Virus genome (UHGV): UHGV-1376088
Strand: one strand, 5' to 3'
Source: a virus
Length of the DNA stretch: 64,000 bases
The notes under the pieces are model-generated. The model had not been told where the DNA came from, did not search any database, and saw nothing but the letters and a program-made list of their open reading frames with translations. Both the position numbers and the translations under genes were made by a program. This document shows positions 13,240 through 64,000 of the stretch, in pieces. The number at the start of each line of letters is the position of its first letter. Positions within the stretch are counted from its first letter, which is position 1.

Positions 13240-13248
13240 GGTATAAAT

Positions 13249-20073: not shown

Positions 20074-20086
20074 CATTACAATTTTC

Positions 20087-20210: not shown

Positions 20211-20215
20211 TATAT

Positions 20216-20357: not shown

Positions 20358-20367
20358 CCCTTTTAAT

Positions 20368-20619: not shown

Positions 20620-20655
20620 CCCTATTTAATTAACTGAATATCCAAAGGATTTAAG

Positions 20656-21183
20656 ATGCAGACGATTGCAATAAACCTAATAGGTGCACCCGGAACGGGC
20701 AAAAGCACAATAGCATCTGAGCTCTTTGCCAAGATGAAGTGGCTTGGATATGATGTTGAGTTGGTTTCCGAATACGCAAAAGAATTGGTTTGGGAACAAA
20801 GAAACGAAACTTTCAAGAATGAACTGTATCTATTTGCAAAACAGCATCATAGAATGTTTAGATTAAATGGTAAGGTGAAGTATATTATTACAGACCGCCC
20901 ATTAATTTTGTCTATTTTTTATAATCAAAAATATGGAAATGGCAGCAAAACATTCCGGCAGCTTGTATTGGAAGAAACAAATAAGTTTCAAAATATCAAT
21001 GTATTTCTGAATAGAACCAAACCATATGTTCAAAATGGCAGAAATCAAAGTGAAGAAGAATCCAATGAATTTGCAAAAGAAATATTCGAATCTCTTGAAA
21101 AATATTGCAATGGATATCTAATTCTAGACGCTGTTGAAAACCAGGCGTCTGAACATATATTGAATTTTGCAAAACAAGAATAA
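20656..21183 (+). CDS. P-loop NTPase/kinase-like protein
   Basis: Walker A 'GAPGTGKST' at the N-terminus, 'ITDRP' Walker-B-like; 175 aa; fold resembles small nucleoside/nucleotide kinases. Confidence 0.5.
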   Translation: MQTIAINLIGAPGTGKSTIASELFAKMKWLGYDVELVSEYAKELVWEQRNETFKNELYLFAKQHHRMFRLNGKVKYIITDRPLILSIFYNQKYGNGSKTFRQLVLEETNKFQNINVFLNRTKPYVQNGRNQSEEESNEFAKEIFESLEKYCNGYLILDAVENQASEHILNFAKQE

Positions 21184-21196
21184 GAATAGGTACAAC

Positions 21197-21397
21197 ATGA
21201 AAGAGTACACATTCTCATACAGGTTTGATAATAAAGCTTGGTCTTTCAGTATTTATGCAAACAGCGAAGAAGAAGCCAAGAGAAAGTTCTGGGCTTTAAA
21301 AGAAAATGGCAAATATTGCGGCGAGATTGTATGCAAAGTGAATGCTACAAAGCCGTACAGTTTTATTAAATCCATTTTGTCGAAGTTTAAGACATAA
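21197..21397 (+). CDS. small hypothetical protein
   Basis: ATG-initiated 66-aa ORF (the track start 21167 is a TTG). Confidence 0.35.
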   Translation: MKEYTFSYRFDNKAWSFSIYANSEEEAKRKFWALKENGKYCGEIVCKVNATKPYSFIKSILSKFKT

Positions 21398-21413
21398 GTT
21401 TAAGTTTAAATGC

Positions 21414-21506
21414 GCTCCCGTACCATAAAAGGATAATGGAACTGACTTCTAATCAGTAAGCCAAACGAAGGCGAGTATGCGGGTTCGAGTCCTGCCGGGA
21501 GTGCCA
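21414..21506 (+). tRNA. class-II-shaped tRNA with anticodon UCU (Arg codon AGA), long variable arm, G73
   Basis: Acceptor gctcccg/cgggagt; D ccat/atgg; anticodon stem actga/tcagt with loop cuUCUaa; 21-nt variable arm with gcc/ggc hairpin; T-loop ttcgagt; CCA encoded. Confidence 0.6.
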
Positions 21507-21612
21507 AAATGCCACAATCTATATATTATTATGGATTTCATTAAAAATAATGTTACTATTGATGAAGTAACTGGATGTTGGAATTGGAATAAATCTGTAA
21601 CAAGTGCAGGTT

Positions 21613-21870
21613 ATGGTCAATCTTAGCCCTACCGGGCATGCCAAATATAAAGGATTCAATATGGTATATTTAAATCTATTTGTGAAATATGTGAATCCAC
21701 GTGTTAGTGGAAGTACGGTTATTCAGGTCAAAGAAGACCATTTGAATTCTGAATTTGACTATATAGTTGAAGATGCTCTTTATGAAAAATTGAAAGAGTC
21801 TCTTCAAATGCCAGAAAGAGTTATAATTGAGAATATTGTAATTCTTGGGCGTTGTGAAAAAGACGATTAA
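21613..21870 (+). CDS. hypothetical protein
   Basis: ORF after the tRNA; weak RBS; start uncertain (ATG at 21613 or 21661). Confidence 0.3.
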   Translation: MVNLSPTGHAKYKGFNMVYLNLFVKYVNPRVSGSTVIQVKEDHLNSEFDYIVEDALYEKLKESLQMPERVIIENIVILGRCEKDD

Positions 21871-22075
21871 GACATAAACTGCCTGGCATGATGCAGTTTT
21901 AACTATCTAATCTGCCATTATTATTCTCAGTCTGGCATTCGCCAAAATGTTGCCGCATTTTGAGAATGATAAAATCATAGATGGTTATTTTCTGGTCCTA
22001 GCAGTCAATTTAGTTGACCCAGTACACTGTAAGCTGGAACTAAAGATAACGATTTAAACCCTGTTCTCCCTAAGC

Positions 22076-22146
22076 AATAATGTAGTTCAGTGGTAGAGCG
22101 TCTGCAATTTGGCAGAATGGCGGTGGTTCGATTCCACCCTTTATTG
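22076..22146 (+). tRNA. tRNA-like gene with non-canonical (6- or 8-nt) anticodon loop, identity undetermined (UUU/UUG region)
   Basis: Acceptor aataatg/ctttatt (6/7 pairs); D gttc-agtggta-gagc; stem tctgc/gcaga around 'aatttg'; T-arm ggtgg-ttcgatt-ccacc; one nt shorter than canonical; possible pseudogene or frameshift-type tRNA. Confidence 0.4.
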
Positions 22147-22631
22147 ACGAGAACAGGTACTCAATTTAATAATGAATCTTTATTCAGATTCATTTAGTCT
22201 GACAATGGTGTGATGAAATCTTAAGGGCTGTTCTTTGGATATTCTTAGTCTAATATTGAAATGTGCATTTCTTTATTGGGCTCTGTTTTATTTGAAGATA
22301 AAGCTTAAAAGGTTGCGATAGCAATAAAAACAATAAGGTGTTGCACAGCGCCTGTTTGGAGTATATTGTGAATGCTTGCACGTGTGCCGCGGAGGTACAA
22401 GGTTCCCGGAGTGGGATAAGTCAGACTAAATGTATTTGAAGCTAATTAAAGCTTAAAGATTTAAGCCCTGCTGATTTCTTATATAATATTGTTTATTATG
22501 ATTATTCTTATATTAGATAAATACTATTTTATCTTTTTCATTTTTCAGCAGGCATATTTAAGCCCTATTAGTTTATTCCGCAATATAGCTAAAATATTGT
22601 TCTAAAAATTAATAGGCAAAATAAAGATTAT

Positions 22632-22706
22632 AGCGAATTGGTGTAATTGGTAACACACAGGGCTCATAACCCTGAGTTATAGGTTCGAGTCCTATGTTCG
22701 CTTCCA
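22632..22706 (+). tRNA. tRNA-Met/Ile2 (anticodon CAU), second copy
   Basis: Acceptor agcgaat/gttcgct; D gtgt-aattggta-acac; anticodon stem caggg/ccctg with loop cuCAUaa; T-loop ttcgagt; CCA. Confidence 0.8.
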
Positions 22707-23491
22707 GATCCTTTCCTAGTGAGGATAACCACTGGTGACTTTTATGGATTTTGAACAGTGAAAATTCTTTGCCCCTTATGCAATAGTTAAGGCGTTTTCC
22801 GTGATGCGAGAAGTTCACGGCGCAATCCACAACGCGATAATCGTGGCGCTGCCCTTCGAAGCGATACGTTAGGGGTCTTCCTTTAGGCTTAATAAAAGGT
22901 AGTTTTTAGAGATTTATATTAAAAGCTCTATAGTTCTGTAGAATACAGAGCAATGGGTTCGTTGCCTGTTCCCATTGCTATGTGTTTTGACTTCCCGGCG
23001 GCCACTGGTTAATGGTCTGACTTAGATTGGTTCAAAGAAATCAATCCCCAAGGTGAGGGTATCGCACCTGTTGTAGGTTGTTCATAAAACCTTCGGTCTT
23101 TTGTGCTCTTTATTCCTTAATACAGGAGCATCGATTGGGTAATGAGACATAAGGTCCCAGTGGGTTTTAGCTTTTTTAACCACGCGAGTGATGTCGCAAA
23201 AGCAAAATGCATTTATGTATTGTTTACAGTATATAAAGTGATAGGTTTCTGCAGGACCTATTGCTGTATGTATTAATATCCCGCGAACCTTCGGTAAATG
23301 GTTCACCTTGCCAAAAGGAAAATTGGAAGTCTGGCATTGCTATGGAAGAATGCTGGTTCGTTGGTCCATCCTTAAAACCGATAAGCTTTTTGTGCATTTA
23401 CGGCTTTGACGATAAATGCCCCGAACTATTAATGTGAATGTATAGCCAGAGTGAATCCTTCTGGGGAGTGATGTCCGAAAAGGATTACAAT

Positions 23492-23578
23492 GCGAATGTG
23501 GCGAAATTTGGTATACGCGCTTGTCTTAGAAGCAGGTGTCCTAGTGGCGTGTGGGTTCGATCCCCTCCATTCGCACCA
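23492..23578 (+). tRNA. tRNA-Leu (anticodon UAG)
   Basis: Class II: D gcg-aaatttggtata-cgc; loop cuUAGaa; ~14-nt variable arm; T-loop ttcgatc; A73; CCA. Confidence 0.7.
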
Positions 23579-23584
23579 ATTCAT

Positions 23585-23660
23585 GCTGGAATAGCTCAAT
23601 TGGTAGAGCAACCATTTTGTAAGCGGTAGGTTGTTAGTTCGATTCTAATTTCCAGCACCA
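23585..23660 (+). tRNA. tRNA-Thr (anticodon UGU)
   Basis: Acceptor gctggaa/ttccagc; D gctc-aattggta-gagc; loop uuUGUaa; T-loop ttcgatt; CCA. Confidence 0.75.
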
Positions 23661-23663
23661 AAT

Positions 23664-23754
23664 GGAGGGACGGCAACGACGGTGGTGTTGCGGCAGACTG
23701 TAAATCTGTTCCGAAAGGTAAACATTGTAGGTTCGACTCCTATTCCCTCCACCA
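23664..23754 (+). tRNA. tRNA-Tyr (anticodon GUA)
   Basis: Acceptor ggaggga/tccctcc; loop cuGUAaa; long variable arm; T-loop ttcgact; CCA. Confidence 0.75.
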
Positions 23755-23758
23755 AATA

Positions 23759-23847
23759 CCGCGAGTGGCGTAACAAGGCAACCGCATCAGACTTAAAATC
23801 TGAGGATCGTAATGATCGTGTGGGTTCGACTCCCACCTCGCGGACCA
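23759..23847 (+). tRNA. tRNA-Leu (anticodon UAA)
   Basis: Acceptor ccgcgag/ctcgcgg; anticodon stem tcaga/tctga with loop cuUAAaa; variable arm hairpin; T-stem gtggg/cccac; A73; CCA. Confidence 0.75.
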
Positions 23848-23893
23848 ATACTGTATTGATAAATTCAATGCTATATAAAAATAGGTTTGATTT

Positions 23894-24217
23894 ATGAAAA
23901 CAGTTAAATTATCAGATTGCTCAAAGTTCCCCAAAGCTAAAGAAGATGGGGAACTTTTTGCCAGAACAAAACTTTTCCATGAGCTTTATAAAACCGAACA
24001 TACCTTAAGAATCGATTTTGATGGTACTTATGGAATTGCTCATTCGTTTTTAGAAGGACTCTTCGGTTTTCTTATTGATTCTGGATGTTTAACAATGAAA
24101 GAGATATTCAATAGGCTAACTATTAAAGCGGATGAATATCCCTATATAATTGAGGGAATATTCTGTATATTGGTGGAATACGATGAAAGAAACTTTGATA
24201 ATAGCCCCTGTAGTTGA
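23894..24217 (+). CDS. hypothetical protein
   Basis: 107-aa ORF immediately after the tRNA block. Confidence 0.4.
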   Translation: MKTVKLSDCSKFPKAKEDGELFARTKLFHELYKTEHTLRIDFDGTYGIAHSFLEGLFGFLIDSGCLTMKEIFNRLTIKADEYPYIIEGIFCILVEYDERNFDNSPCS

Positions 24218-24350
24218 AGTTAAAAAGATCCCTTCGTTTGCCGAGTTTATAGAAATGAGAACGCGGCAACTTCTAAGAGAATTAGACAAGCATTCAAAAA
24301 ATCTAGAAAAAGAGACTAATAAGCTTGTAGATATTATCTCTAATAGTTAA
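24183..24350 (+). CDS. small hypothetical protein
   Basis: ATG with 'ggtgg' RBS; overlaps the previous ORF's 3' end; speculative. Confidence 0.3.
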   Translation: MKETLIIAPVVEVKKIPSFAEFIEMRTRQLLRELDKHSKNLEKETNKLVDIISNS

Positions 24351-24377
24351 AATTTTAAAACAATAAAGTGTAGATGT

Positions 24378-24452
24378 TGGCATGTAGCTCAGCGGCAGAG
24401 CAGACGGCTGTTAACCGTCCGGTCGTAGGTTCGATCCCTACCGTGCCAGCCA
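24378..24452 (+). tRNA. tRNA-Asn (anticodon GUU)
   Basis: D gctc-agcggcag-agc; anticodon stem gacgg/ccgtc with loop cuGUUaa; T-loop ttcgatc; CCA. Confidence 0.75.
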
Positions 24453-24646
24453 AAAGATTATGGGCAGGTAGTTTAAGAGGAAAAAACCACGTGGGTGTAT
24501 ACCTTCGACGTTATTGGAATCGAGGCCAATTCTGTCCACTAATTTCCCATTTCCCATATATTTCAATCATCAATCCTTTCCACAGTACAGGGTTAAAATA
24601 TTTTGACTAATAGCGCCAACTAGCGGTCAAAGCTAATGGGAATTTC

Positions 24647-24733
24647 ACAACCATGACGGAATTGGTAGACGTATCGGTACTTAATGTGCCGAAGCCGGAG
24701 AGTGGCGTGCAGGTTCAAATCCTGCTGGTTGTG
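24647..24733 (+). tRNA. class-II tRNA, anticodon UAA (Leu-type) with U37 and G73
   Basis: Acceptor acaacca/tggttgt; D acg-gaattggtaga-cgt; anticodon stem cggta/tgccg with loop cuUAAug; 16-nt variable arm; T-loop ttcaaat; no CCA encoded. Confidence 0.6.
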
Positions 24734-24754
24734 ATACATAACAGAGGTGTAAAC

Positions 24755-24955
24755 ATGTCCAAGAAAAGATGTTTTGTTCTTTACGAACGAGAAGGCAAAA
24801 GAAATTCGGCCTTTATTGAAATTGATGATGTCTATATTACTGGTACTTTATTTAGATCTTTGAAATCTCATGTTTCTGATAAGATAGCTGACCTATATAC
24901 GGATAGGTATGGCTATGTATTAATTTTGGATTTCAAAGTTATTGCCTCTGTTTAG
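24755..24955 (+). CDS. small hypothetical protein
   Basis: ATG with SD 'agagg' just after the tRNA; the track ORF 24653 starts inside the tRNA. Confidence 0.4.
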   Translation: MSKKRCFVLYEREGKRNSAFIEIDDVYITGTLFRSLKSHVSDKIADLYTDRYGYVLILDFKVIASV

Positions 24956-24972
24956 TTTAAACGAATTTTAAT

Positions 24973-25046
24973 GCGGGCATGGTATAGAGGTTGTGCCTTA
25001 GCCTTCCAAGCTAATGAGAGGGATTCGAGTTCCCTTGCCCGCTCCA
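24973..25046 (+). tRNA. tRNA-Gly (anticodon UCC)
   Basis: Acceptor gcgggca/tgcccgc; anticodon stem ttagc/gctaa with loop cuUCCaa; T-arm aggga-ttcgagt-tccct; CCA. Confidence 0.75.
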
Positions 25047-25231
25047 ACAATTTAAGACAGGCGCTTGCAAGTTTGAGGGAAGTCATATTAGGCCCCGTGT
25101 CCATACAGCCTCCACGCACTCTGCCTGTCTAACCCTTATGTCCTGAATGCCTGCTACGACTACATCTGACTTTTTATCGGACATTAAGTGTCGAGCTATT
25201 TTTGTCAGGACTCTCTATAAAAGGTAACAGA

Positions 25232-25669
25232 ATGTCTGACTGGGAATATCAATCTTTTATTGCAGAAGACGATTTACTTCCTACCTTCTGTTATAGAATT
25301 AAGCATAGTGGTAATACTATTTCTATTCAATTTGGGCCTGTAAAACAATACAACGGTCTGCCGGTTTATTCTGTATGTCTATCAATTTATCGAAAACGTA
25401 AGCGTATTGATATTGATTTTAGCGCTCGATCTGTAACAGGAACTATTGGGACTACAGGATTACTGTTAGCAAAGCAAAGCTTCGACTTGTTTATCAAAGA
25501 ATTCTTTGATGAAGTGGATACGGATGGTGTTATCTTATCAGTACAAGGTGCTGATGTCAGACGATATAAAGTTTATAAGCGTACCCTTGAAAGAATGGGG
25601 TATACTGAAGGTAAGCTTTTGGGCTCTTTATGTATGAGTAAAGTTTACTATCGAGAAAGTCTTAAATGA
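25232..25669 (+). CDS. hypothetical protein
   Basis: ATG with SD 'aaaagg' (the track start 25202 is a TTG). Confidence 0.45.
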   Translation: MSDWEYQSFIAEDDLLPTFCYRIKHSGNTISIQFGPVKQYNGLPVYSVCLSIYRKRKRIDIDFSARSVTGTIGTTGLLLAKQSFDLFIKEFFDEVDTDGVILSVQGADVRRYKVYKRTLERMGYTEGKLLGSLCMSKVYYRESLK

Positions 25670-25689
25670 CTAAAATTTATATATTTTTC

Positions 25690-25780
25690 ACCACCTTAGC
25701 TTAATGGTAAAGCAGCGAGCTTATACCTCGTAACGACAGATAATCGGCTGATCTGGGTTCGAGTCCCGGAGGTGGTACCA
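25690..25780 (+). tRNA. class-II-shaped tRNA with anticodon UAU (Ile AUA), long variable arm
   Basis: Acceptor accacct/aggtggt; D gctt-aatggta-aagc; anticodon stem gcgag/ctcgt with loop cuUAUac; ~21-nt variable region; T-loop ttcgagt; A73; CCA. Confidence 0.55.
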
Positions 25781-25806
25781 TTAGAAAGTGTCGAGAGAGT
25801 TAAAAT

Positions 25807-25894
25807 GGAGAAGTGGCAGAGTGGACTATTGCACCTGACTTGAAATCAGCCGATCGGAAACGGTCCGTGGGTTCGAATCCCATCTTCTCCTCCA
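25807..25894 (+). tRNA. tRNA-Ser (anticodon UGA)
   Basis: Acceptor ggagaag/cttctcc; D gca/tgc; anticodon stem ctga/tcag with loop cuUGAaa; long variable arm; T-loop ttcgaat; U73; CCA. Confidence 0.65.
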
Positions 25895-44677: not shown

Positions 44678-46054
44678 ATGAGTTTGAGCGTTGCTGATCT
44701 GATGGGCGAAATGGATTTTCGTTTGCCGAAGGTTGTACAAAGCAAAGAAGAAGCAGAAGATGGCGATTCTATTGTAGCTGAAGACGGTATCTATAAATTG
44801 GTCCGCGCCATTATTGGTGACTTCTGGATTAAGGCAGAAAGCTTTAAGACTAAGATGGTTGGAATGCCGCAGCTGTCAGAAAGCTTTACACAGTCATCTG
44901 AAATTCCTAAAATCCCAGGTGAATTGTTTTACGGTATTATCAGATTCTACCGTAAAATTTACGAAACAAATAAAAATGAAGTGATGGCCCAGATTTGGTG
45001 GGATAAAGAAGAGCGCAAATTCCTGGTTGAAGTTCCAGAACAAGAAGTTGCAGGTGCTTCTATTACTTATCAAAGAACCGGCGGATGGTATGATGATCCT
45101 AATAAGGTCCTTGTATTGACATCTCACTCACATCATACAATGGGTGCATTCTATTCATCCGTAGACAATTCAGATGAAAAAGGCAAACATGGAATTTACT
45201 CATTTGTATTTGGCAATTTAGTAAATAAGCCTGACGGAACATTTACATATAAAACCGTTCAGCGCGTATGCTGTGCAGACGCATTAATTCCATTACAGCT
45301 GGAAGATATTTTTGATTTTACCGAAGGTTGCGAATTTCTTTTCGAAATCCCAGAAGAGGATTACGCAAAAGTTAAAGCTAAAGTTTATAACTATGGAGCT
45401 TATGCTAATTATGGCAAATCTAAATCAAAGGGGTTTCCTTACACGGGCGGCCAATCAACTCCCGCAAACGTCTCAAAAATCGAAGACAACTATGAATTTT
45501 ACTCAGGATATCTGGGTTATTCTTACGGGAGTTATGACAGCGCTTGGGATTCTGTGGATTATCCTAACAATGCTTCAACTGTAGGATCAAGCGCTATAGA
45601 AAAACGATGGCAAACTGGTGCTGAAGCCACGGTTGACAGAGTTAAATATGGATATATTTCCTCTATACTGAGAGGAATGTCCAAGCCTGGCGATGAGCTC
45701 CTGTATAACTATTTTGAATTCAAAGAAATTGAATCTATTGTTTCTGATTTTGTAAATGCTGTAAGCCTGCCGGAAACACATCCGTATTATATGTTCGCAG
45801 AGCTTCTGAACTCATTTATGTCTAATCTTTTGGAAGGTCTTTCAGATGTACAATATGGTGATCGTGAAGGGCTTAGCAAAATTGAAGATCCATCAAAAGC
45901 ATTTGCCGTTGTGATTGCATCTGCTATTAGTGGTGTGGAGGATTCTTTTAATAGTATGGCTTCTCCTAATAGCGCTGTTGACCTTATGAAAGACCATAAT
46001 TTGAGCTTTTTGTATCTACCAGAACGAATTGCCGCTTATTTAAAAGATTTTTAA
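44678..46054 (+). CDS. JAB/MPN (JAMM) metalloprotease-domain protein
   Basis: 'SHSHHTMGAFYSSVD' = JAMM motif HxHx7Sx2D; 458 aa with an uncharacterised C-terminal half. Confidence 0.6.
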   Translation: MSLSVADLMGEMDFRLPKVVQSKEEAEDGDSIVAEDGIYKLVRAIIGDFWIKAESFKTKMVGMPQLSESFTQSSEIPKIPGELFYGIIRFYRKIYETNKNEVMAQIWWDKEERKFLVEVPEQEVAGASITYQRTGGWYDDPNKVLVLTSHSHHTMGAFYSSVDNSDEKGKHGIYSFVFGNLVNKPDGTFTYKTVQRVCCADALIPLQLEDIFDFTEGCEFLFEIPEEDYAKVKAKVYNYGAYANYGKSKSKGFPYTGGQSTPANVSKIEDNYEFYSGYLGYSYGSYDSAWDSVDYPNNASTVGSSAIEKRWQTGAEATVDRVKYGYISSILRGMSKPGDELLYNYFEFKEIESIVSDFVNAVSLPETHPYYMFAELLNSFMSNLLEGLSDVQYGDREGLSKIEDPSKAFAVVIASAISGVEDSFNSMASPNSAVDLMKDHNLSFLYLPERIAAYLKDF

Positions 46055-46066: not shown

Positions 46067-46969
46067 ATGCAAAATGCTGTACTTGGCAGAAAGAAAATTG
46101 AATTTATTTCAACTCAAGATGAAATCAATAAGCATCAGAAAGAAGTTGAAGATTACGAAATGACAAAATTAATGCAACGTCTTTCGTCCGCCGAAACTAA
46201 TGCTCCTAAAAAGCCGCTTGACCGCATTGTTGTTGTTGGTTGTGGCGGAACTGGCTCTTGGTTAATTCCAAAACTTGCAAAAACCATCAATGATATGAAG
46301 CGCAAGAAATTACTTGCTAATCATTTTTCTTTGATTCTTGTTGATGGCGACCAAATTGAACCTAAAAATTTGATTCGGCAGAACTTTGTTGAATCAGATA
46401 TTGGTAAAAATAAAGCGGAAATCATGGCTCTTCGATATGGGGCAACGCTTAAAGATATTAATGTCCAATATATCGACAAGTATTTGACCGATAAGTCAAG
46501 TTTTGACACTAATCACTTTTCCCATATCAATGTTTTGCAGAATATGATTTACGATGACAATTATTGTGTCATATTCAATCTTGTTGATAACCAAAATGCA
46601 AGACGCGCGGTTCACTCATTACAGTTCTGCGGCTGGATTGTTGATATTGGTAATGAACTGGCACATGGCCAATTGTTTGCAACTCCATATGGTTTGACTA
46701 GTGGCTTTATTGGATCATTAAGCTTCTTCACTATGTCTCCGGAAACGTTGACGGCAGATGAAGAAGTGAAAATTTATTCTTGCGCCGAAGCCGATGCGGA
46801 TACAGAGCTGGAAGAACAGTTCTTGGTTGCCAACGATACAGCTGCTTTGGTTGGACATAACTGGCTATGCTCTTTAATGAGCGGTCCAGATGTAGTTCCT
46901 GCAAGAATTAATTTTACATGCTTGCCAATTCCGACCGTAGAAACAGTGTTGAAAACAATCCGGTTTTAA
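46067..46969 (+). CDS. E1-like (ThiF/MoeB family) adenylyltransferase
   Basis: Rossmann 'RIVVVGCGGTGSWLI'; 'LILVDGDQIEPKNLIRQ' matches the E1 DxD...NLxRQ motif. Confidence 0.6.
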   Translation: MQNAVLGRKKIEFISTQDEINKHQKEVEDYEMTKLMQRLSSAETNAPKKPLDRIVVVGCGGTGSWLIPKLAKTINDMKRKKLLANHFSLILVDGDQIEPKNLIRQNFVESDIGKNKAEIMALRYGATLKDINVQYIDKYLTDKSSFDTNHFSHINVLQNMIYDDNYCVIFNLVDNQNARRAVHSLQFCGWIVDIGNELAHGQLFATPYGLTSGFIGSLSFFTMSPETLTADEEVKIYSCAEADADTELEEQFLVANDTAALVGHNWLCSLMSGPDVVPARINFTCLPIPTVETVLKTIRF

Positions 46970-47024: not shown

Positions 47025-48566
47025 ATGGAAGATAAAAATTTGTGTTTGAGCTTTTTAGCGCCTATGATGAATTTGTCTCAAACATTTTTAAATATTATCG
47101 AAAAAATTGAAAACGAAGAATGCTCTATTGACTCTTCGTTTCCTGAAAAGTTATTCAATAAGACGCCAAAAGAAGATGTTTTAAACGCGATTGAAACTCT
47201 CATTGATTATAATAATTTATTTTTGATTGACTTTGATGAGTATTCGAAAAAAGTAAAAACCTTATCAGATTTCGTTGGTAATTGTAACAACACAATTCTT
47301 TTCAGAAACTTTAGAACTGATAAGGGTCGTGAAGTTTGCTATATCAATAAGCAGATCCCAGACATTTATTCAGATAGGATTAAAGAGATCCATTCTAATA
47401 TTAGACCCTTAATAGGCCGCCTAACTCCTAGACTGAATTTAATTAAAAATCAGAATTCTACAGATTCATATGTAGACATTAATTACGATCAGATGGCCAT
47501 CAAATCAGATATTTCTTCGTTCTTTCGCTCTGTAAGATTTGAAAATGTTATTAAATACCTCTCTAAGACTTTCCTTGTTAAAAATATACTTATGTATAGC
47601 AAAAGTCAAACTGAAAACAAAGAGCTTAGAGTATTTGAGCGAATTGAAATTGCTTTATGGGGATTTATTAGTTGTCTATTCCATAATGGTATTATCCCTA
47701 CTGGAGCTAGATATGCAAATGATTTAGCCGCCTGCTATTTGAATAATCTTGTTTTTAATACCTTTAGAAAGGACATGCTATATTCGAATCGTGCAAGAAT
47801 CTATGTATATGTAGATGACCTGCTCTTTCTCGGAGAGGAAGGCAATGTTAAAGAATTTTATGCGGAATTCGAAAAGGCTATCAATAAAGGCGGACTATAT
47901 CTGAATTATAAGAAGACTCAATATTTTTATCCTAAAAATGGAATTCTTGAGTATTCTTCTTTGGGCAGAACTAGAAAATTTGACTTCACAACTGGTTTTG
48001 TTTCTAAAGTTGATTCGAAAGCCCGCAAAAAATGTTTGGATATTATTAAAGAGCGCCGCGAATACGATGCCTCTGAGAAGGGTATCATTAATTATGCATT
48101 ATATATGAGGCATGGAGCCAATAAGATTGTCAATCCAGATATATTAATGCATTCTTATTTTAATGATAAATCCGAACTGTGGGATAAACTTATAGCAGGT
48201 GAATTGAATCTGAAATTGAATAAGAGTATTTTTGATCCCACTAATCTGAAATATAAGGATATATGTATAATGTCAAAAGATATTGATGTCGGTTTTCTTT
48301 CCGCTCATCAATTCCTTGACATTACAGATGCGATAGCAGAATTTGTAAAACTGTTTATCCTCGACAATCCTTTTGGTCTTAACCTATATGGAATTAATCT
48401 AACAGAATCCAATGAGGGTAATTATAATTTAATTCTGAATTTGGTAAGACAACGATCCAGAGGCACTGCGAATATAATCCCATGTCCTTTAATTTTCAGA
48501 AAAGATTTCCTAAACGGACTTTATGTAGAAGGCAAAGATGAAAGCGCTTTAAATGGATGGATATAA
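47025..48566 (+). CDS. reverse transcriptase (standalone, unclassified)
   Basis: Motif A 'IKSDISSFFRSV', motif B' 'GIIPTGARYANDLAACYLNNL', motif C 'YVYVDDLLFLG', motif D 'LYLNYKKTQY'; extra N- and C-terminal regions; SD 'aaggaag'. Confidence 0.7.
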   Translation: MEDKNLCLSFLAPMMNLSQTFLNIIEKIENEECSIDSSFPEKLFNKTPKEDVLNAIETLIDYNNLFLIDFDEYSKKVKTLSDFVGNCNNTILFRNFRTDKGREVCYINKQIPDIYSDRIKEIHSNIRPLIGRLTPRLNLIKNQNSTDSYVDINYDQMAIKSDISSFFRSVRFENVIKYLSKTFLVKNILMYSKSQTENKELRVFERIEIALWGFISCLFHNGIIPTGARYANDLAACYLNNLVFNTFRKDMLYSNRARIYVYVDDLLFLGEEGNVKEFYAEFEKAINKGGLYLNYKKTQYFYPKNGILEYSSLGRTRKFDFTTGFVSKVDSKARKKCLDIIKERREYDASEKGIINYALYMRHGANKIVNPDILMHSYFNDKSELWDKLIAGELNLKLNKSIFDPTNLKYKDICIMSKDIDVGFLSAHQFLDITDAIAEFVKLFILDNPFGLNLYGINLTESNEGNYNLILNLVRQRSRGTANIIPCPLIFRKDFLNGLYVEGKDESALNGWI

Positions 48567-52484: not shown

Positions 52485-52513
52485 TAACTCTAATTTAAAA
52501 GGACAACGCAGAA

Positions 52514-53176
52514 GTGTCTAAAATAGAAATGAACGTTTCGCCCGACGTCAAAAGGGCAATGACTAACTTTAAGACTGCAATGAATAAGAAGTATGGAGAA
52601 GGTAGTGATATTTTTGCCAACGGGCAGTATCAGAATTTTGAGTCTATCTCTTCTGGTTCTGCCATTCTTGATGGTCTTCTTGGTAATGGAGGATGGGTCA
52701 GGGGCCGTGTTCACGAAATCTTTGGCGCGTCCGGTTCTGGCAAATCCACTATTGTATCTTTGACTTGTGCAAATGCACGTCGACAATATCCGGATAAATA
52801 CATTTTATATGTGGACGCCGAACAAGCGCAAAACCATGCCTATATGAAAAAATTGGGGCTTGATTGCGAGAACGATGAAGGTGTCGTATTCCTCCAGATG
52901 CAGGAAGCTGAGAATGTCTTTGAAGTTATTGACGGTGCGGTTGCTACCGGCGCCTTTAGTTTGGTTGTCGTTGATAGTGTTCCAGCGTTAATGACTAAAC
53001 GCGAATTGAATGGCGATTACGACAAAGAAACGATGGCCGAGAAAGCTCGCTTCCTGTCTAAAGCTTTGCCCAAGCTTTTGGAATCTTTGAAGAAAGCTAA
53101 TACCACTATGATTTTTGTGAATCAGGTAAGGGACAAGATGGATATGTGGGGCGGAGTTACTACCCCTGGTAATAGT
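52514..53176 (+). CDS. recA: RecA/UvsX-family recombinase, exon 1 (N-terminal core up to the loop-2 region)
   Basis: 'ISSGSAILDGLLGNGGWVRGRVHEIFGASGSGKSTI' (Walker A), 'LVVVDSVPAL', 'IFVNQVRDKM...TTPGNS'; GTG start with SD 'aaagga'; homology stops at ...TTPGNS, then 14 junk codons to a stop. Confidence 0.75.
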
Positions 53177-53470
53177 ATCTATGGTTACTATTTAGTAACT
53201 GTAGATTTCTGCCGTTCATAGTGGAAACATTATGAATCATGATAGCGGAATTAAGCGAGAAAATCCTCCCTCTTAGATAGGACAACTCGAACCGAAGGCT
53301 GGCCCTAACGGCCCAGTCAGGGGCAACGCATAGAAGCTGAAACTAATAATAGAATATAATGCTTCCACGAGGCCGCTACACCTAAGTCCTTTGGATATGG
53401 TGAAAAAGTATGCTGAACTGCATTGTAATGATGCAGAGGCAGAGATAAAAAGCTCTGCGATAACAAAATG
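53177..53470 (+). other. intervening sequence in recA (candidate self-splicing intron, ~294 nt, no ORF)
   Basis: RecA homology resumes in the same frame at 53471; exon 1 ends in U and the intervening sequence ends in G; the segment is locally GC-richer (ggctggccctaacggcccagtcaggggcaacgc) than flanking DNA. Confidence 0.5.
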
Positions 53471-53905
53471 GGAAAAGCCATTCCGTTTTATTGCTCAAGT
53501 CGTGTTAAAGTAAATTCGACCCCGTCAATGCGAATTAAAAATTCAGCCGGCGATGGATTCATTGGTCAAACCGTGGACTTTACTATAATTAAGAATAAAG
53601 TCGGTAGTCCTTTTGGTGTTGGTGAATCTAATCTTTATTTTGGTGTTGGTTTTAATAAAGTTGAAGAACTTATTGAAGCTGCTATTGCCAAAGATGTTTT
53701 TGAAAAGGGCGGAGCCTGGTACACATTACCTTATTGTACTGAAGATGGCGAAGTTTTAAAATTTCAAGGTAAAACTGGCCTTAAATCATATTATGAAGCC
53801 AATCCTTCCGAATTAGATAAACTTCAAGAACTTGTTAACAATGCGGGACGTGATGATGAAATTCAAGTAGTTGGGGCGCCCGGTACAGTTGAGGATGGAT
53901 ATTAA
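53471..53905 (+). CDS. recA: RecA/UvsX-family recombinase, exon 2 (C-terminal part)
   Basis: 'KAIPFYCSSRVKV...IIKNKVGSPFGVGESNLYFGVGFNK...GGAWYTL' aligns to RecA '...KFYASVRLDIRR...[24 protein letters not shown]...AGAWYSY'. Confidence 0.7.
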   Translation, partial: GKAIPFYCSSRVKVNSTPSMRIKNSAGDGFIGQTVDFTIIKNKVGSPFGVGESNLYFGVGFNKVEELIEAAIAKDVFEKGGAWYTLPYCTEDGEVLKFQGKTGLKSYYEANPSELDKLQELVNNAGRDDEIQVVGAPGTVEDGY

Positions 53906-54475: not shown

Positions 54476-56233
54476 ATGGACTTTGTATCCACTCCTGAAA
54501 ATCCAAATGGTGATATTAAACCCGAAGATATCGGGAAGTATACGAATTTACATGCTCATAGCATTTATAGTCCTTTAGATGGCTTCGGTAAGCTTGAAGA
54601 ATATTGCGAACGGGTAAAAGCTCTAGGGATGAAAGGCTTATGCCTTTCTGAACATGGCAATATGATTGGTCATCATGAACAGGCTAAGATTTGTGCTAAG
54701 CATGGCATTAAGCCTATTTTTGCTAATGAAGGGTATATGACTCTTCATGCCGGATCTATTAAAGAAAAGATAGAGGGTTATAAGGCGAACTATCATATTT
54801 TGCTTATTGCTATTAATGAGCAGGGTTATAGAAACCTTATGAAAGCTACATCTATTGCTTGGACACGTTATAAATATTATAAGCCACGCTTTGATTTAGC
54901 ACTTCTTGAAGAATGCAACGAGGGCCTGATTTGTACATCTGCTTGTCTTGGCGGACCAATTAATCAGTTATATTTAGATGGCCGACCTGAAGAGGCTGAA
55001 CAGGTTGCGCTAAAGCTGAAAGAGATTTTCGGCGATAGATTTTATTTGGAAAAAACTTATACCGGCTTAGAAGAGCAAGATATTGCTAATAAGAATTTGG
55101 TTGAGATTTCTAAAAAGCATAATATACCTATGATTATTACTTGTGATAGTCATTATGTTTATCCTTGGCAATCTGATAGTCATGCAAAATTGGTTATGGT
55201 TAATACTGGCGGTCAAATCAATAAAGCGATTAAGGCTGCCGGCTTAACTGACTCTAGCAAAGAAGATGCTGACGTAGATAGCAACTCTATGTTCTATCAG
55301 CCTAGTCAGTATTATGTTAAACCACATCATGTATTGGTTGAAGAATATTATTCTAATCCTGAAGATGAAGAAGCCTTTGCCAATACTAATAAAATTGCAG
55401 ATATGTGCAATGTGGTTTTACCTAAAAATGAAGACATCATTTTTCCTTCACCATATTCTGATCCCGATTCTGTTTTAAGAGGACGGGCAATGCAATGGTA
55501 TTCGGAATACTCTAAAAAACTTTCTGATGAACAAAAAGCATTGTATTTAGATAGGCTGGAAGAAGAGCTGGATATGTATTCTAAAATGGGCTTTAGTTCT
55601 TATCCTTTGGTGCTGCAAGAGATTCTTGATGAAGCCAAAGCGAAAGGCATTATGATTGGCCCTGGCCGAGGATGCCTATTTGAGGGAACTAAAGTTCTAA
55701 TTAATAGATCCGGATCCATATATTATTGTCCGATTGAATTTGTCAAAGTCGGCGATATGGTATGGACACATAATAGCAGATGGAAGTCTGTATATCATAC
55801 CACTAAATATGTTGTAGACTATAGAGATATGGTTACTCTCGAGACAGAATATGGTATGATGCACCTCACAGAAGACCATAAAGTAAAAACAAAAAACCAT
55901 GGATTTATCCCTGCTATTGAATTAGACGGACAAATACACACACTGGATAGAGGAACTTTATCCGATGAAATTCTGTCTAAAGTTGAAGATTATAAAACCG
56001 ATTCAATCGAAAATTTTGAACTTTCTAGCTTCTATAATGAGGATGAACCTGTAAGGGTTTATGATCTTATGGTTGATGAAGATTGTTCTTTTAGAACTAA
56101 TATCTGTATGGTGCACAATAGTGCCGCGGGGTCTTTACTCTCTTATGCATTAGGTATTACTGCTATTGACCCTATACCATATGGACTAATGTTCAGTCGT
56201 TATCTTAACGCCGGACGCGCAAAACTACCGGTT
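54476..56233 (+). CDS. dnaE: DNA polymerase III alpha (DnaE) exon 1: PHP domain through the GPGRG...SAAGS...LNAGRAKLPV region, containing a mini-intein
   Basis: PHP 'NLHAHSIYSPLDGFG...CLSEHGNMIGH'; 'GIMIGPGRG[intein]SAAGSLLSYALGITAIDPIPYGLMFSRYLN'; homology to E. coli '...ERVSMPDFDVDFC' ends at ...KLPV; the ORF then reads 18 non-homologous codons to a stop at 56287. Confidence 0.8.
55673..56119 (+). other. mini-intein (Hint domain, 149 aa, no homing endonuclease) in DnaE
   Basis: Inserted between GPGRG and SAAGS; begins 'CLFEG' (Cys1) and ends 'VHN' followed by Ser+1; length consistent with a mini-intein. Confidence 0.7.
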
Positions 56234-56290
56234 ATTGAAATTAAAGGCTACCCATTAAAAGAGTGGCTAACAACAGAAAGAAAATAAAAA

Positions 56291-57654: not shown

Positions 57655-58770
57655 ATGTATATTCTTAGTATTGTATTCAGTAATCATTGTGATTTGGATT
57701 GTTCTTATTGCTGCATACAGTCTAAGAATATGTCTCCTGTATTGGCGAATTTAGAACAGATTAAAGATTTCATTAGAAAATATGCAAAGACAGGATCCAT
57801 TGTTGAATTTTATGGAGGTGAACCTACCCTTCATAAAAAAGAGCTATTTGATATCATCAATTTCTGTAGCTCTCTTGATATGGACATTGGCACTAGGCTA
57901 TATACTAATGGATTATTTGCTAACTGGACAGAGGAAGAGATTCTTTCTCTGTCTTACATTTTAGATGAAGTTCTCATTTCTCTTGATGGATCTACATTTG
58001 AAGAGAATAAACAGCGCTTTGAAAATCAGGCCCAGTTTGATGCTGTCCTGAATAATATTAAAACAATGCGAAAATCTGAGGATTTGAACATTACTTTAAG
58101 TTCTGTTTTATATGGTCGATCCAAATTTGAGAATATGTTCTCTAATTACAAATTCTTTTCGGCGCTTGGTGTTGATACCTTTAGCTATGAGCCGGTCACT
58201 ATATATAGGACAGACAAAGCTGTTATTATCCCTAGGGATTTCTTTGGTGCTTTATTTAAGGGCATTATGGAAATTTCTAGGGACATTTTTATTTCCGGAA
58301 AAGAGCGATCTTTGTTTGTAGCAAAAGAACTGTTAGCTGCTTCTTGGTATCATCAGGGAGACAAGGATTTATGTTCTAAGAACGTAAGAGCCATTTCTCC
58401 GCGCGGCAATATTTATATGTGTCGTGATCATGCAGCTAATGAAGAAGAGATGTTTTATTCTCCTAAAGTTATTCAGTTCTTTAATAAGAATAACCTGAAG
58501 TCAGATAATGAATCATTCCCACTAGTGGAAGAAAACGAAAAAGACTTAACGCATTGTCCTGTTAAAAATATACAATACAGACAAGCTGGTGTTGAAAAGG
58601 ATCTATACTGGTTATCTGATTCGTGGCAAGATTTTGTAGTAAAACCTATGTATTCTACGATTCTTGCTGTAAACTCTCAGGCCGATAATCTGTCTGAAAT
58701 AATTGATTATTTTTATCCTAAAGTTGATGAGTTATTAAAAATAGCTATTAGTCAGGAAGGAATTAAATGA
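57655..58770 (+). CDS. radical SAM / SPASM-domain enzyme (anSME/PqqE-like peptide-modifying maturase family)
   Basis: 'SNHCDLDCSYCC' = CX3CX2C; 'VEFYGGEPTLH' SAM-binding GGE motif; additional C-terminal Cys cluster (CSKN...CRDH...HCPV); 371 aa. Confidence 0.7.
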   Translation: MYILSIVFSNHCDLDCSYCCIQSKNMSPVLANLEQIKDFIRKYAKTGSIVEFYGGEPTLHKKELFDIINFCSSLDMDIGTRLYTNGLFANWTEEEILSLSYILDEVLISLDGSTFEENKQRFENQAQFDAVLNNIKTMRKSEDLNITLSSVLYGRSKFENMFSNYKFFSALGVDTFSYEPVTIYRTDKAVIIPRDFFGALFKGIMEISRDIFISGKERSLFVAKELLAASWYHQGDKDLCSKNVRAISPRGNIYMCRDHAANEEEMFYSPKVIQFFNKNNLKSDNESFPLVEENEKDLTHCPVKNIQYRQAGVEKDLYWLSDSWQDFVVKPMYSTILAVNSQADNLSEIIDYFYPKVDELLKIAISQEGIK

Positions 58771-59687: not shown

Positions 59688-60281
59688 ATGGTTTTAGTGC
59701 GAAAAGCAACAGAGGCAGACTTTGAATGGCTCGTAGAGTGCTCAAATAAAGATTGGGTTATTAACGATTACAGCGGAACCTTTAGGGACTGGCTAAAAAG
59801 CTTTGGTGTTGCAGACGAAGAATTGGATAAATGTTATAACTTTGATTGGTTTAAAAAATACATTTATCCAAAAGCTCCTCAGGATTTATATATAGTAAAT
59901 AACGGACAAAAGGACGTTGGATTTTTCTGTCAAGATTTGGATCAAACAAATTCAATTATTGGCGGAACCGTATTCTTACATCCTCGTTCATGTAAAATGT
60001 CTATCCTTAAAGCTATTAAGGCTATCTGTATTCGGGCTTGTTTAATCCAAGATGAATTCGATGCGTGTGAGGTAAATACATGGACTCCACTTATCGTTTC
60101 TACTGCCCAATCCGTTGTTCCTTGCTTAAAAGAGAGCATGATCGCTGAAGAGTACCGAATTCTTTACGGTGAAACAAGAAACTTCCCAACAAAGGAAGAT
60201 ATTATTAAAAAATATAACGTTACAGATATCGATAAGGATAACTGTTTTGTTTTTGATGAGGTAAGAAGACATGGAGCTTGA
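59688..60281 (+). CDS. hypothetical protein (possible GNAT-like)
   Basis: ORF overlapping the next gene by 11 nt; weak acetyltransferase-like features only. Confidence 0.4.
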   Translation: MVLVRKATEADFEWLVECSNKDWVINDYSGTFRDWLKSFGVADEELDKCYNFDWFKKYIYPKAPQDLYIVNNGQKDVGFFCQDLDQTNSIIGGTVFLHPRSCKMSILKAIKAICIRACLIQDEFDACEVNTWTPLIVSTAQSVVPCLKESMIAEEYRILYGETRNFPTKEDIIKKYNVTDIDKDNCFVFDEVRRHGA

Positions 60282-60945
60282 ATTTAAAAAGGGTCCGGGC
60301 GGATCTTTCGGTTACTATATTGACGGTATGATCCAATGGGCTACTGGTCGCGATTATTTTAAATATCCACGAATGTTCCATAAGGTCTATCAAAGAATGT
60401 TCCCTGACAATAAGGCGCCAGAAGAATGGAACAATATCCTTGTTATTGGCGGCGGCGATTTTCAATTAATCAGTGAATGCACATTCCTGTCATATGATAA
60501 CCGTATAACAATCGTAGATCCTAGTATCACAGAATACTTTACCAAGTTTAAACCTCATCACACTGCCGCCAATGGCCAATTTAAAAAGCAATATGCCGCT
60601 ATGACTGGTAAAGCATTCCTAAATATTGTAGAAAAAGATATCCAAACCTTTTTGTCAGAACATAATGAACAATCTGAAACTTATGATTTGATTGTCTGTG
60701 ATTTGACAGACGAACTTGCTTTTGATCCTACGAATATTTATTCGACTCAAGTTTATGATAAACTTCTTCGTCCTGGCGGCATTATGATTGGATACGGCGG
60801 ACTTTCTACTAAAAGCTTCTTTGAAGAATTTCCACTATTGGCTATGGATATCACTGAGCTCCATGTTATTGCAGAAAAATTCCAAAGCTGGAATGGCGAC
60901 ACTGGAGTATTTTATGGTTTAGCAAAAGCTGGCCTGTACGAATGA
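60271..60945 (+). CDS. spermidine-synthase-like aminopropyltransferase (SpeE family)
   Basis: 'NILVIGGGDFQL' ~ SpeE 'VLIIGGGDGGVLRE'; 'DLIVCDLTDELAFDPTNIYSTQVYDKLLRPGGIM' ~ SpeE 'YDVIIVDSSDPIGPAETLF...FY..L...LKPGG'. Confidence 0.5.
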   Translation: MELEFKKGPGGSFGYYIDGMIQWATGRDYFKYPRMFHKVYQRMFPDNKAPEEWNNILVIGGGDFQLISECTFLSYDNRITIVDPSITEYFTKFKPHHTAANGQFKKQYAAMTGKAFLNIVEKDIQTFLSEHNEQSETYDLIVCDLTDELAFDPTNIYSTQVYDKLLRPGGIMIGYGGLSTKSFFEEFPLLAMDITELHVIAEKFQSWNGDTGVFYGLAKAGLYE

Positions 60946-62508: not shown

Positions 62509-63001
62509 ATATGTCATAGACTGTTCTAGTCCTAGGCGAAAAACGCGAAATAGAATTAGAAGGTTTGAAAAATCTATTCTTATGCTGGAAGGATTGAGGT
62601 ATTTTGCATTTCCTAAAGATTTGGCCAATATAGAAAAAAGAATTCAACAATATAAAGATAAGATCCGAGAAAAGGAACTTAGATATGGCGATTTTTTACA
62701 CCTTTGCGGCATTAAAAAAGATATTAGCGAAACCCAAAGGAAGATACACTTTAATAAAATCCAATTTAGAGAGCTTAATGAAAAAATTAACTCTATAAAC
62801 AGCTATATCGAAAGTGCTATAAATCCCTTTGATTTTGATTATATCGAATTGAGAATTATCAAATCGAAAAAGGAAATGCAACGCCTTAAGGATTTGCGAA
62901 TTGCTCTTGGAAAAGAACAATATGGTCTAAAGAAAAGGCTCAAAGAGGGTTATCGTTCTTTAGCAAATCTCCATAATGATACAGGTAAAGAAAATGGCTG
63001 A
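62501..63001 (+). CDS. hypothetical basic coiled-coil protein
   Basis: ORF overlapping the upstream stop. Confidence 0.4.
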   Translation: MDKYVIDCSSPRRKTRNRIRRFEKSILMLEGLRYFAFPKDLANIEKRIQQYKDKIREKELRYGDFLHLCGIKKDISETQRKIHFNKIQFRELNEKINSINSYIESAINPFDFDYIELRIIKSKKEMQRLKDLRIALGKEQYGLKKRLKEGYRSLANLHNDTGKENG

Positions 63002-63257
63002 ATATAAAACATTAAGAGAATTAGTTTTATCCTTTTCTGACACCGATTGGTTTAAAGAACATAGAGCAAATATTATGTTTGAATTAAACCATTGTGAACT
63101 TCATCATATTGATTCCTATTATTTGAATTTATACAATGCAGGCGTTAAAGGTATAGAGGAAAATGAAGCTAATTCTTCTATTGCATATTTACTCGGAATT
63201 GTAACAACCCCGCCAAATGGTAAAGTTCATACTGTTGGCGGAGGTTTCCCGGATTAA
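62994..63257 (+). CDS. hypothetical protein
   Basis: ATG with 'aggtaaag' RBS (the track start 62976 is an upstream ATG). Confidence 0.4.
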   Translation: MAEYKTLRELVLSFSDTDWFKEHRANIMFELNHCELHHIDSYYLNLYNAGVKGIEENEANSSIAYLLGIVTTPPNGKVHTVGGGFPD

Positions 63258-63371
63258 AGAAATAGTCCCTTTGTTAAGAAATTGACAACAGAAAACTCTG
63301 TGAAAACGGTGGAACTCTCTAGAAGACAATGCCGTGCGAAAGTTTGCGAAAGCGAAAGACGTGTAACGACT

Positions 63372-63510
63372 ATTATGTAGGGCCAAGTGGTTCGAAGCGC
63401 AGAGCACCTAAATCCTTATGGACATGGTGATGAGATAGTCTGGTCTCTATGGCGACATAGAGCTGGTTTTGTACCGGGTATAGATTAACGACCTATACTG
63501 AACATAAACG
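63372..63510 (+). repeat. repeat element B (shares termini with 20419-20516); candidate intron 3' core abutting dnaE exon 2
   Basis: attatgtagggccaagtggttcgaagcgca ... ccgggtatagattaacgacctatactgaacataaacg; contains 'gagatagtc' resembling a group I P7/S-element; ends in G immediately before the exon. Confidence 0.5.
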
Positions 63511-64000
63511 ATTGATTCCGATGTAGAAAAAGAAAGACGCGCTGAAGTATTTGAAATGCTTAAAGATAAGTATGGAGAAGGATTTGCGCATCTTGGTACA
63601 CTAACCTATACTGGCGGCAAAAAGGCATTTAAAGATGCTGCACGTATTCATGGTATGGGTTTTGATAAAGCAAATAAGATATCGTCCATGATGCCTGAAA
63701 TTGGATGTCCTCCACTTGACGTATTACTCAAAGAAGACGATGAAATCAAGGCATTGTATGACTCAGACCCCGAAGTAAAAGAGGTCTGGGACGATGCAAT
63801 TAAGCTCAGTGACTGTTTATCCAGTCAAGGGGTTCATGCATGTGGAGTTGCATTGTCTGATCGTCCACTATGGGAAGATGTTCCACTTTGGGATAGCAAA
63901 GGCGTTCCTGTTATTCAGTGGGAAGGTAATAAAATTGAAGAAACGTCAAATGTTGTAAAATTAGATGTGCTTGGGTTAAAAACGCTTACAGTTCTTAACT
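63511..64000 (+). CDS. dnaE: DnaE exon 2 (partial; continues beyond the window)
   Basis: 'IDSDVEKERRAEVFEMLKDKYGEGFAHLGTLTYTGGKKAFKDAARIHGMGF...GVHACGVALSD...VKLDVLGLKTLTVL' aligns with E. coli DnaE '...[21 protein letters not shown]...AGKHAGGVVIAP...VKFDFLGLRTLTII'; no start codon; in-frame stop 6 nt upstream. Confidence 0.75.
   Translation, partial: MDSDVEKERRAEVFEMLKDKYGEGFAHLGTLTYTGGKKAFKDAARIHGMGFDKANKISSMMPEIGCPPLDVLLKEDDEIKALYDSDPEVKEVWDDAIKLSDCLSSQGVHACGVALSDRPLWEDVPLWDSKGVPVIQWEGNKIEETSNVVKLDVLGLKTLTVLN

Follow-up and report, generated by a model that had tools for sequence, protein, structure and literature searches.

How is a phage recA gene read when its ATPase core is broken by some 300 nucleotides (nt)? 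The question is raised by the virus genome UHGV-1376088, of which a stretch of 64,000 nt, referred to here as the window, has been analysed. Two open reading frames (ORFs) share one strand and one frame within 52514..53905: the upstream one (52514..53221, 235 aa) matches the Pfam RecA profile over positions 8-214 with 148 bits, and the downstream one (53468..53905, 145 aa) over positions 205-261 with 24.5 bits. The joined product gives a single match over positions 8-261, with 185 bits. Since the two halves thus yield one continuous match, recA is interrupted within its ATPase core with the frame maintained, as an earlier note made from the sequence alone had claimed. The insert is very probably a group I intron devoid of ORF and precisely delimited; it is probably of the phage IA type. 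Its exact boundaries, its covarying fold, its presence/absence polymorphism and the purifying selection acting on both exons are detailed below; from these features we infer catalysis and splicing themselves.

The boundaries were set by comparison with uninterrupted RecA homologues, sought with the joined product among 5.8 billion proteins. Five close ones were retained (P0001-P0005, 78-99% identity to the joined RecA), including P0001 (93% identity; its cluster comprises 165 sequences), P0002 (91%) and P0005 (99%, over 63% of the query only, its source being a short, low-coverage contig). Their junction region reads WGG(V/I/E/Q)TTPGGKA(I/V)PFY, with TTPG followed directly by GK. The earlier note had placed the end of the homology after TTPGNS, with an insert of 294 nt (53177..53470). 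Since the uninterrupted homologues read TTPGGKAIPFY, the NS after TTPG is encoded by the intron; the homology ends at TTPG, the insert covers 300 nt and splits the gene between 53170 and 53471, and the 5' boundary proposed earlier was 6 nt off. Both lengths preserve the reading frame. The boundary between 53176 and 53177 was dropped, as it would add the NS found in none of the uninterrupted homologues. Another candidate, shifted by -1, would still encode PGGK, but the exon would then end in G and the intron in U, which breaks the group I rule. The other part of the earlier description, a U before the insert and a G at its end, is right at the revised site (U53170 and G53470). The insertion site thus reads CCTGGT^GGAAAA, or TTPG^GK in protein terms (the caret marks the insertion point). 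When the junction spliced in silico, with 100 nt per side, is compared with the intron-less contig L008, 194 of the 200 nt are identical without any gap. The last base of exon 1 is A (GGA) in this intron-less contig and U (GGU) in the intron-bearing allele. The gene is therefore best described by three features:

52514..53170, + strand: recA exon 1; GTG start, 219 codons, ending ACC CCT GGT (T P G); Pfam RecA, 148 bits; its end at 53170 is fixed by the uninterrupted homologues and the intron-less allele L008.
53171..53470, + strand: group I intron without ORF, 300 nt.
53471..53905, + strand: recA exon 2, starting GGA AAA GCC (G K A I P F Y); stop codon 53903-53905; Pfam RecA and RecA_C.

The corresponding gene model is join(52514..53170,53471..53905), encoding one RecA of 363 aa, and neither two fragments nor a pseudogene.

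The secondary structure of the insert was derived by hand from matches in GenBank phages and from five recA relatives (L009, L010, L011, L014 and L017) that an exact-protein look-up had retrieved. Folding the spacer for helices P1-P9, as had been proposed, gives a complete architecture with P1, P10, P2 to P9.1, the P3/P7 pseudoknot, a P7.1 of the IA type and a terminal G; its core runs in the order P3-P4-P5-P6-P7-P3'-P8-P7'-P9 of group I introns. When 12 members are aligned with MAFFT, which takes no account of structure, 86.7% of the cells pair, as compared with 31-40% when the partners are slid by 1-3 columns; double-sided changes are carried by 42 of the 62 pairs, and none of 500 shuffles reaches the observed values. 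A covariance model of nine family members, termed R1, was built with P7 left out. In the larger alignment A5 (93 distinct sequences), 94.5% of the cells are paired (34-45% when slid) and 57 of the 62 pairs are compensatory, although the pairing percentage is inflated for every helix but P7, A5 having been fitted to R1. P7 is the independent part of this test, since it is absent from the model: 98.8% of its cells are paired across the 93 sequences, and an A-U to U-A swap is seen in the Staphylococcus phage members. When the window intron is folded on its own, the minimum-free-energy structure (z = -4.75) contains the P1 extension, P2, P4, P5, P6a, P7.1, P8, P9 and P9.1. The elements, all on the + strand, are as follows:

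53167..53171, + strand: P1 5' strand, exon UGGU plus intron A1, with the 5' splice site after U53170; read from the sequence.
53179..53204, + strand: P1 extension hairpin, CUAUGGUUAC with GUAACUGUAG, 10 bp, present in the minimum-free-energy fold.
53206..53214, + strand: internal guide, U53210-G53214 (UGCCG) for P1 and U53206-U53210 (UUUCU) for P10.
53217..53234, + strand: P2 hairpin with a GAAA loop; 7 of 7 pairs compensatory.
53243..53248, + strand: P3 5' strand, partner 53373..53378; in A5, 98.2% of its cells are paired and all 6 pairs show compensatory changes.
53256..53289, + strand: P4 (53256-59 with 53286-89), enclosing P5 (53264-67 with 53279-82); J4/5 is A-rich.
53292..53321, + strand: P6 (53292-93 with 53320-21) and P6a (53299-304 with 53310-316).
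53328..53332, + strand: P7 5' strand GCAUA, partner 53409..53413 (UAUGC), in a pseudoknot with P3.
53333..53365, + strand: P7.1 (53333-37 with 53361-65) and inner P7.1a (53343-45 with 53350-52); 99.8% of cells paired, 4 of 5 pairs compensatory.
53373..53378, + strand: P3 3' strand.
53379..53402, + strand: P8, outer part 53379-82 with 53399-402, inner part 53386-89 with 53393-96.
53409..53413, + strand: P7 3' strand.
53418..53436, + strand: P9 hairpin.
53439..53458, + strand: P9.1 hairpin, near-invariant loop GAUAAAAAGC; 99.6% of cells paired.
53470, + strand: terminal G (omega-G), with the 3' splice site right after it; G is the last base in all members checked.

Details at the 5' splice site complete this picture. 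The exon ends in GGU in each family member checked. P1 comprises 5 bp, with the U53170·G53211 wobble flanked by pairs G-C, G-C, U·G and A-U, and P10 also comprises 5 bp, GGAAA (53471-75) with UUUCU (53206-10). The guide region, 'CUGCCGUU', is unchanged in all five of the ORF-less recA copies aligned (the window, L017, L009, L011 and L010), and guide positions G3 and C4 are invariant over the 12 family members. The intron side of P1 covaries, with AAA facing UUU in PMBT8 and UUU facing AAA in L014, and the arms of the P1 extension differ yet keep pairing in L009, L011 and L010. The entire P6a stem is exchanged in L011, with compensatory changes. P7.1 and its inner P7.1a, a peripheral element typical of subgroup IA, covary as well. 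P7 is presumably the guanosine-binding helix. Early candidates for P1 (intron G14-A17, and the 3' arm of the L009 hairpin) were given up for the invariant UGCCG guide adjoining P2, which is preferred because it accounts in addition for P10 and for the GGU rule seen across the family.

Besides the fitting of A5 to R1, several points weigh against this group I assignment. P1 is short, with two wobble pairs among its five, and its exon side (GGU with GCC) is constant in the family, so that covariation cannot test P1 there. P10 is weaker in L009 and L011. There is no clear P7.2, just a 2-bp candidate (CC ACGA GG), so that the intron could belong to IA1, IA2 or IA3. With the Rfam group I model RF00028 (Intron_gpI), the search proposed in the earlier note, the window intron reaches 12.4 bits (E=2.1), where the gathering score is 50; among the computational checks for a group I intron, this is the one with a negative outcome. 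The same model, run at E<=1 on four GenBank relatives with homologous introns, found no match.

The RF00028 alignment of the window intron is nevertheless full-length (model 1-253, over 53193..53436) and collinear with the hand-derived helices, and Rfam and GISSD models may miss phage group I variants according to a 2025 phage intron survey (PMC11878797). A scan of the whole window with Rfam at gathering threshold retrieved tRNAs only and also missed a second group I intron (63255..63510, + strand, 256 nt), which splits a DnaE-like gene (DNA polymerase III (Pol III) alpha). With laxer filters this second intron scores 67.2 bits against Intron_gpI, above the gathering score, and 37.7 bits against R1. 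Its site, TTC CCG GAT^...G^ATT GAT TCC GAT (FPD^IDSDV), looks like the catalytic PDxD motif. The blind spot of the Rfam group I model is made concrete by these figures: a score of 12 bits for the recA intron, and an above-threshold second intron lost by the default speed filters. Of the five R1-family members tried against this model, all came out well under threshold or without any score. R1 itself found full-length matches in all GenBank loci and in all 80 IMG/VR loci searched, the latter having been fetched by a 20-nt family signature that occurs in at least 119 IMG/VR stretches and in 93 stretches of bacterial species genomes. A family-specific covariance model thus retrieves about a hundred copies.

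According to the proposed mechanism, recA would be transcribed as a single pre-mRNA, in which the intron would fold into the P1-P10 architecture. The guide UGCCG (53210-53214) would hold U53170 in P1 through the U53170·G53211 wobble, and an exogenous guanosine, bound in P7, would attack the bond that follows this U. The freed 3'-OH of U53170 would then attack after the terminal G53470, with P10, formed by GGAAA of the 3' exon and UUUCU (53206-10), aligning the downstream exon. Ligation would give CCUGGU-GGAAAAGCC and restore codons P218-G219^G220-K221 of the 363-aa RecA; the junction expected in spliced RNA is ACTACCCCTGGT^GGAAAAGCCATT. The insertion point matches the GG within TTTGGNALKFY, a conserved stretch in bacterial RecA.

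To judge from the relatives sequenced, the interruption is no chance feature, the same ORF-less insert being found at the same recA codon in L009, L010, L011, L017 and L082. Intron-less recA alleles are common too, as in P0001. The group I reading of the earlier note is borne out by such alleles, by the U·G pair of P1, the terminal G, P10, the covarying P2-P9 core and the restored RecA. L082 (IMGVR_UViG_3300045988_164140, 11985..13952) is the closest IMG/VR relative; it also has three more R1 matches 8-10 kb downstream (150, 43 and 38 bits), where the window has just one. In L011 (3001..4835, logan SRR18147840_379), recA contains an intein (Pfam Intein_splicing, after DAEQA) in addition to the same intron at TTPG^G.

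Other relatives carry an endonuclease gene. In L012 and L013 both the site and the ribozyme are those of the window, and a 360-aa endonuclease ORF fills the P1 loop; in L014-L016 a related ribozyme lies 10 nt upstream (WGGSV^TPGG) and carries a homologous ORF of 324 aa. The two ORFs share 30% identity between L012 and L014 (E=2e-27). These endonuclease-bearing introns lie at 3649..4892 in L014 and 3664..4963 in L012, and the L014 ORF extends into P3 and J3/4. It has a C-terminal DUF559/Vsr-like domain (Pfam) preceded by helix-turn-helix (HTH) repeats; its membership of the EDxHD family is argued from this Pfam match and the domain architecture, since a PDB sequence search matched no chain. No homing-endonuclease ORF is found in the window recA intron, which therefore cannot home on its own. 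The window copy is most likely a derivative that has lost its endonuclease, or has spread by recombination or through an endonuclease acting in trans. Over the surrounding 7 kb, the window and L017 are mostly 96-100% identical (about 91-93% at the far upstream end), with the exception of a patch of about 600 nt in exon 1 (52500..53100, 79-93% identity) that ends near the intron. This patch is possibly a one-sided co-conversion or recombination tract; one-sided co-conversion tracts have been described for Bacillus introns (PMC2504315). The patch, the endonuclease-bearing versions at the window's site and an intron core better conserved among relatives than their exons make the intron look mobile.

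What other readings of the locus could account for these data? The one that survives best, although very unlikely, is a dead intron remnant that no longer splices, which would make recA a pseudogene or leave just the truncated 235-aa product. It can draw on the low Rfam score and on the absence of the endonuclease gene, since intron decay usually begins when that gene is lost (PMC2504315). However, all the core helices are intact in the window copy, and its core is 100% identical to that of L017 and 95-98% identical to those of L009 and L010 (95-100% in all), while the exons have diverged to 71-89%. Codon differences between the window and its relatives are, moreover, mostly synonymous in both exons, with 59 synonymous and 6 non-synonymous in exon 1 (compared with L017) and 55 and 8 in exon 2 (compared with L009). 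Since synonymous differences prevail, exon 2, downstream of the intron, appears to be still translated in the recA frame; such an excess would not last if it were untranslated, which counts against a dead remnant. Judged by these counts, both exons are under purifying selection and the gene is still in use.

Less probable again is a fractured gene, in which the two recA pieces would be translated apart, the second one from ATG 53468, and would assemble into a working recombinase, the spacer RNA being incidental or regulatory. An in-frame ATG (53468-53470) does stand immediately upstream of exon 2, and gene callers report two coding sequences (CDSs) in relatives. This ATG is however preceded by no Shine-Dalgarno-like purine run (GCGATAACAAAATG), whereas the recA start and the next gene have one, and it is missing in L011 (ACATTTTTG^GGT). 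The break also interrupts TTPGG, a conserved stretch; the spacer adopts a conserved ribozyme fold that occurs in many unrelated genes, and alleles without the intron run colinear with the two exons once joined.

The earlier description of the spacer as free of ORFs holds in that no meaningful one is present, but mechanical ORFs of 31-54 aa do exist. The recA frame is closed inside the insert by 10 stops, with TAG, TGA and TAA all represented, and the other two frames are likewise closed. The description of the spacer as GC-richer (higher in guanine and cytosine) is right with respect to the window (41.3% versus 36.0%) and wrong with respect to recA exon 1 (44.0%). The least credible alternative, in which the insert would be an intein or a group II intron or would be skipped by translational bypassing, could invoke an insert length that is a multiple of three and the intein in recA of L011, but it is effectively refuted by the covarying group I fold and by the in-frame stops, which exclude an intein and read-through by recoding, while 300 nt with a P3/P7 pseudoknot core do not fit a group II architecture and bypassing as in T4 gene 60 covers tens of nucleotides, not 300.

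The reading as a group I intron (here without an ORF) also extends beyond recA. When the whole recA gene was compared by blastn with GenBank phages, the insert alone matched, and all the matches fell in unannotated gaps between the two halves of essential genes of unrelated phages. Homologous introns were found in this way at the following places:

Staphylococcus phages SpP and PMBT8: gene for the terminase large subunit (TerL).
bajarodcaudo virus 1: capsid gene.
Aeromonas phage AhC3_1: RNA polymerase gene, at DFDG^D.
Bacillus phage KLEB27-3: helicase gene.
Bacillus phage BpSp: gyrA.
Listeria phage LIS04: homologous intron.

These introns resemble that of the window by a core identity of 70-80% (blastn), by full-length R1 matches of 103-189 bits and by the GGU that precedes those checked; they differ by their host genes and host phyla, and some contain endonuclease ORFs or extra hairpins. 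In six GenBank entries (L002, PP468606; L004, PV158447; L005, MK893987; L001, OM634661; L007, KT895374; L003, PQ006092) the introns are unannotated and the genes have been deposited as at least two CDSs. Two R1 matches occur in the terminase gene of L002 and four in the capsid gene of L003. The annotation correction made here for recA is needed equally in its relatives, and in several GenBank phages for the terminase, RNA polymerase, helicase, gyrase and capsid genes that are split. Megablast of window positions 45000-64000 against GenBank phages gave no match, so there is no close cultured relative; tblastn of RecA against phages likewise found no cultured phage above 42% identity.

The R1 family also interrupts recA in Bacillaceae, namely in Pseudalkalibacillus decolorationis, Bacillus timonensis and Evansella vedderi. 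Their site, GTTATGTTCGGT^...G^AACCCAGAA (VMFG^NPE; TTCGGT^AACCCA), lies 7 codons upstream of the TTPG^GK site of the window (L222, L227). Two R1-family matches are seen in each of L222 (5359..7555), L227 (6607..7824) and L225 (1327..1943), which suggests two introns in or beside one Bacillaceae recA gene, one of them at VMFG^NPE. In all, recA is occupied at three GGU sites within about 25 nt (MFG^NPE, WGGSV^TPGG and TTPG^GK), and at all three, as at every other site checked (including TerL, RNA polymerase and gyrA), GGU faces the guide GCC. A doubtful and rather speculative extension would make the R1 family a distinct, very widespread phage IA lineage that retargets, with its near-fixed GCC guide, to GGU in catalytic motifs of essential genes, by RNA-guided reverse splicing and not solely by homing through an endonuclease.

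Other features of the window were recorded as well. Within the ORF 54476..56287, which encodes a PHP/Pol III alpha N-terminal part, a 149-aa mini-intein is probable at 55673..56119 (+ strand). It is flanked as GPGRG^C...VHN^SAAGS, has a TxxH-like block and interrupts the Pfam DNA_pol3_alpha match; its own Pfam scores are weak (Intein_splicing E=0.031, Hint_2 E=0.13). This ORF and the ORF 62976..64000, about 6.7 kb apart, each have a Pol III alpha AYxLGI segment. The former ends NAGRAKLP, just short of the PDxD position, and the latter has the PDxD motif; the pair may represent either a split or rearranged dnaE or two paralogues. Among the genes in between, one codes for a radical SAM protein (57655..58770) and another for a spermidine-synthase-like protein (60271..60945). 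Just upstream of the RuvC-recA module, the segment 44678..48566 (+ strand) contains a JAB-domain ORF (44678..46054), a ThiF/E1-like ORF (46067..46969) and a reverse-transcriptase ORF (47025..48566, RVT_1 E=5e-9), the latter being kept in the distant relatives L012 and L014. A cluster of 14-15 tRNA genes spans 17695..25891 (+ strand). It includes an unusually long match to the tRNA model (20087..20207, 121 nt, 46.8 bits) and a weak tRNA-Sec-like match below gathering (23664..23750, 35.8 bits).

The replication and recombination module of this phage is thus crowded with selfish elements, the window containing two introns and a probable intein, and its relatives an intein and endonuclease-bearing introns in the same module. 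Such crowding is expected for large phages and opens no new question.

How does the recA intron of the window compare with known ones? Group I introns in recA, already mentioned by the earlier note for Bacillus anthracis and phages, are indeed documented in the B. cereus group and in phage 0305phi8-36 (PMC2504315, PMC3239194, PMC3984707), the B. anthracis intron being credited in PMC3984707 to Ko et al. 2002. The intron of the B. cereus group interrupts the same host gene and belongs to the same element class. It is ORF-less in 20 of the 21 intron-bearing strains through loss of the endonuclease gene, splices in vivo and in vitro, and is said to resemble phage introns (PMC2504315). It lies on a bacterial chromosome and is described with IA1/IA3 features, whereas the window intron belongs to a phage.

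Phage 0305phi8-36, which infects Bacillus thuringiensis, provides the other case: there too, a group I intron lies within the recA of a phage. It encodes I-Bth0305I, an EDxHD/Vsr-like homing endonuclease (PMC3239194), in contrast to the window intron with its lack of an endonuclease gene. The endonucleases of L012 and L014 share the architecture of I-Bth0305I, with N-terminal HTH repeats and a C-terminal DUF559/Vsr-like nuclease. The published I-Bth0305I target, TTCGGTGATCCAAA (F G D P), places the 0305phi8-36 intron near FG^DP (PMC3239194). The VMFG^NPE site of Bacillaceae agrees with this target (TTCGGT-GATCC), while the PG^GK site of the window differs from both the FGDP and the MFG^NPE sites; blastn of the window intron against GenBank phages gave no match in 0305phi8-36.

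Phage introns of the IA2 type, such as those of Twort orf142 and T4 td, resemble the window intron in their overall fold and in the P7.1-type insertion between P7 and P3'. They are likewise short and located in essential genes of phages, are preceded by a U and have G as their last base. In Twort, R1 matches 16990-17233 (43 bits) and 17269-17542 (34 bits), in an unannotated gap after ORF106 and downstream of the tail-sheath-sized ORF011; by position only, these would be the self-splicing introns of orf142 (tail tube), at the location expected from PMC11878797. The relationship is distant, with 34-43 bits as compared with 100-290 bits within the family, and the host genes differ. Group I introns in recA being already known, that of the window is a further one, at a new recA insertion site.

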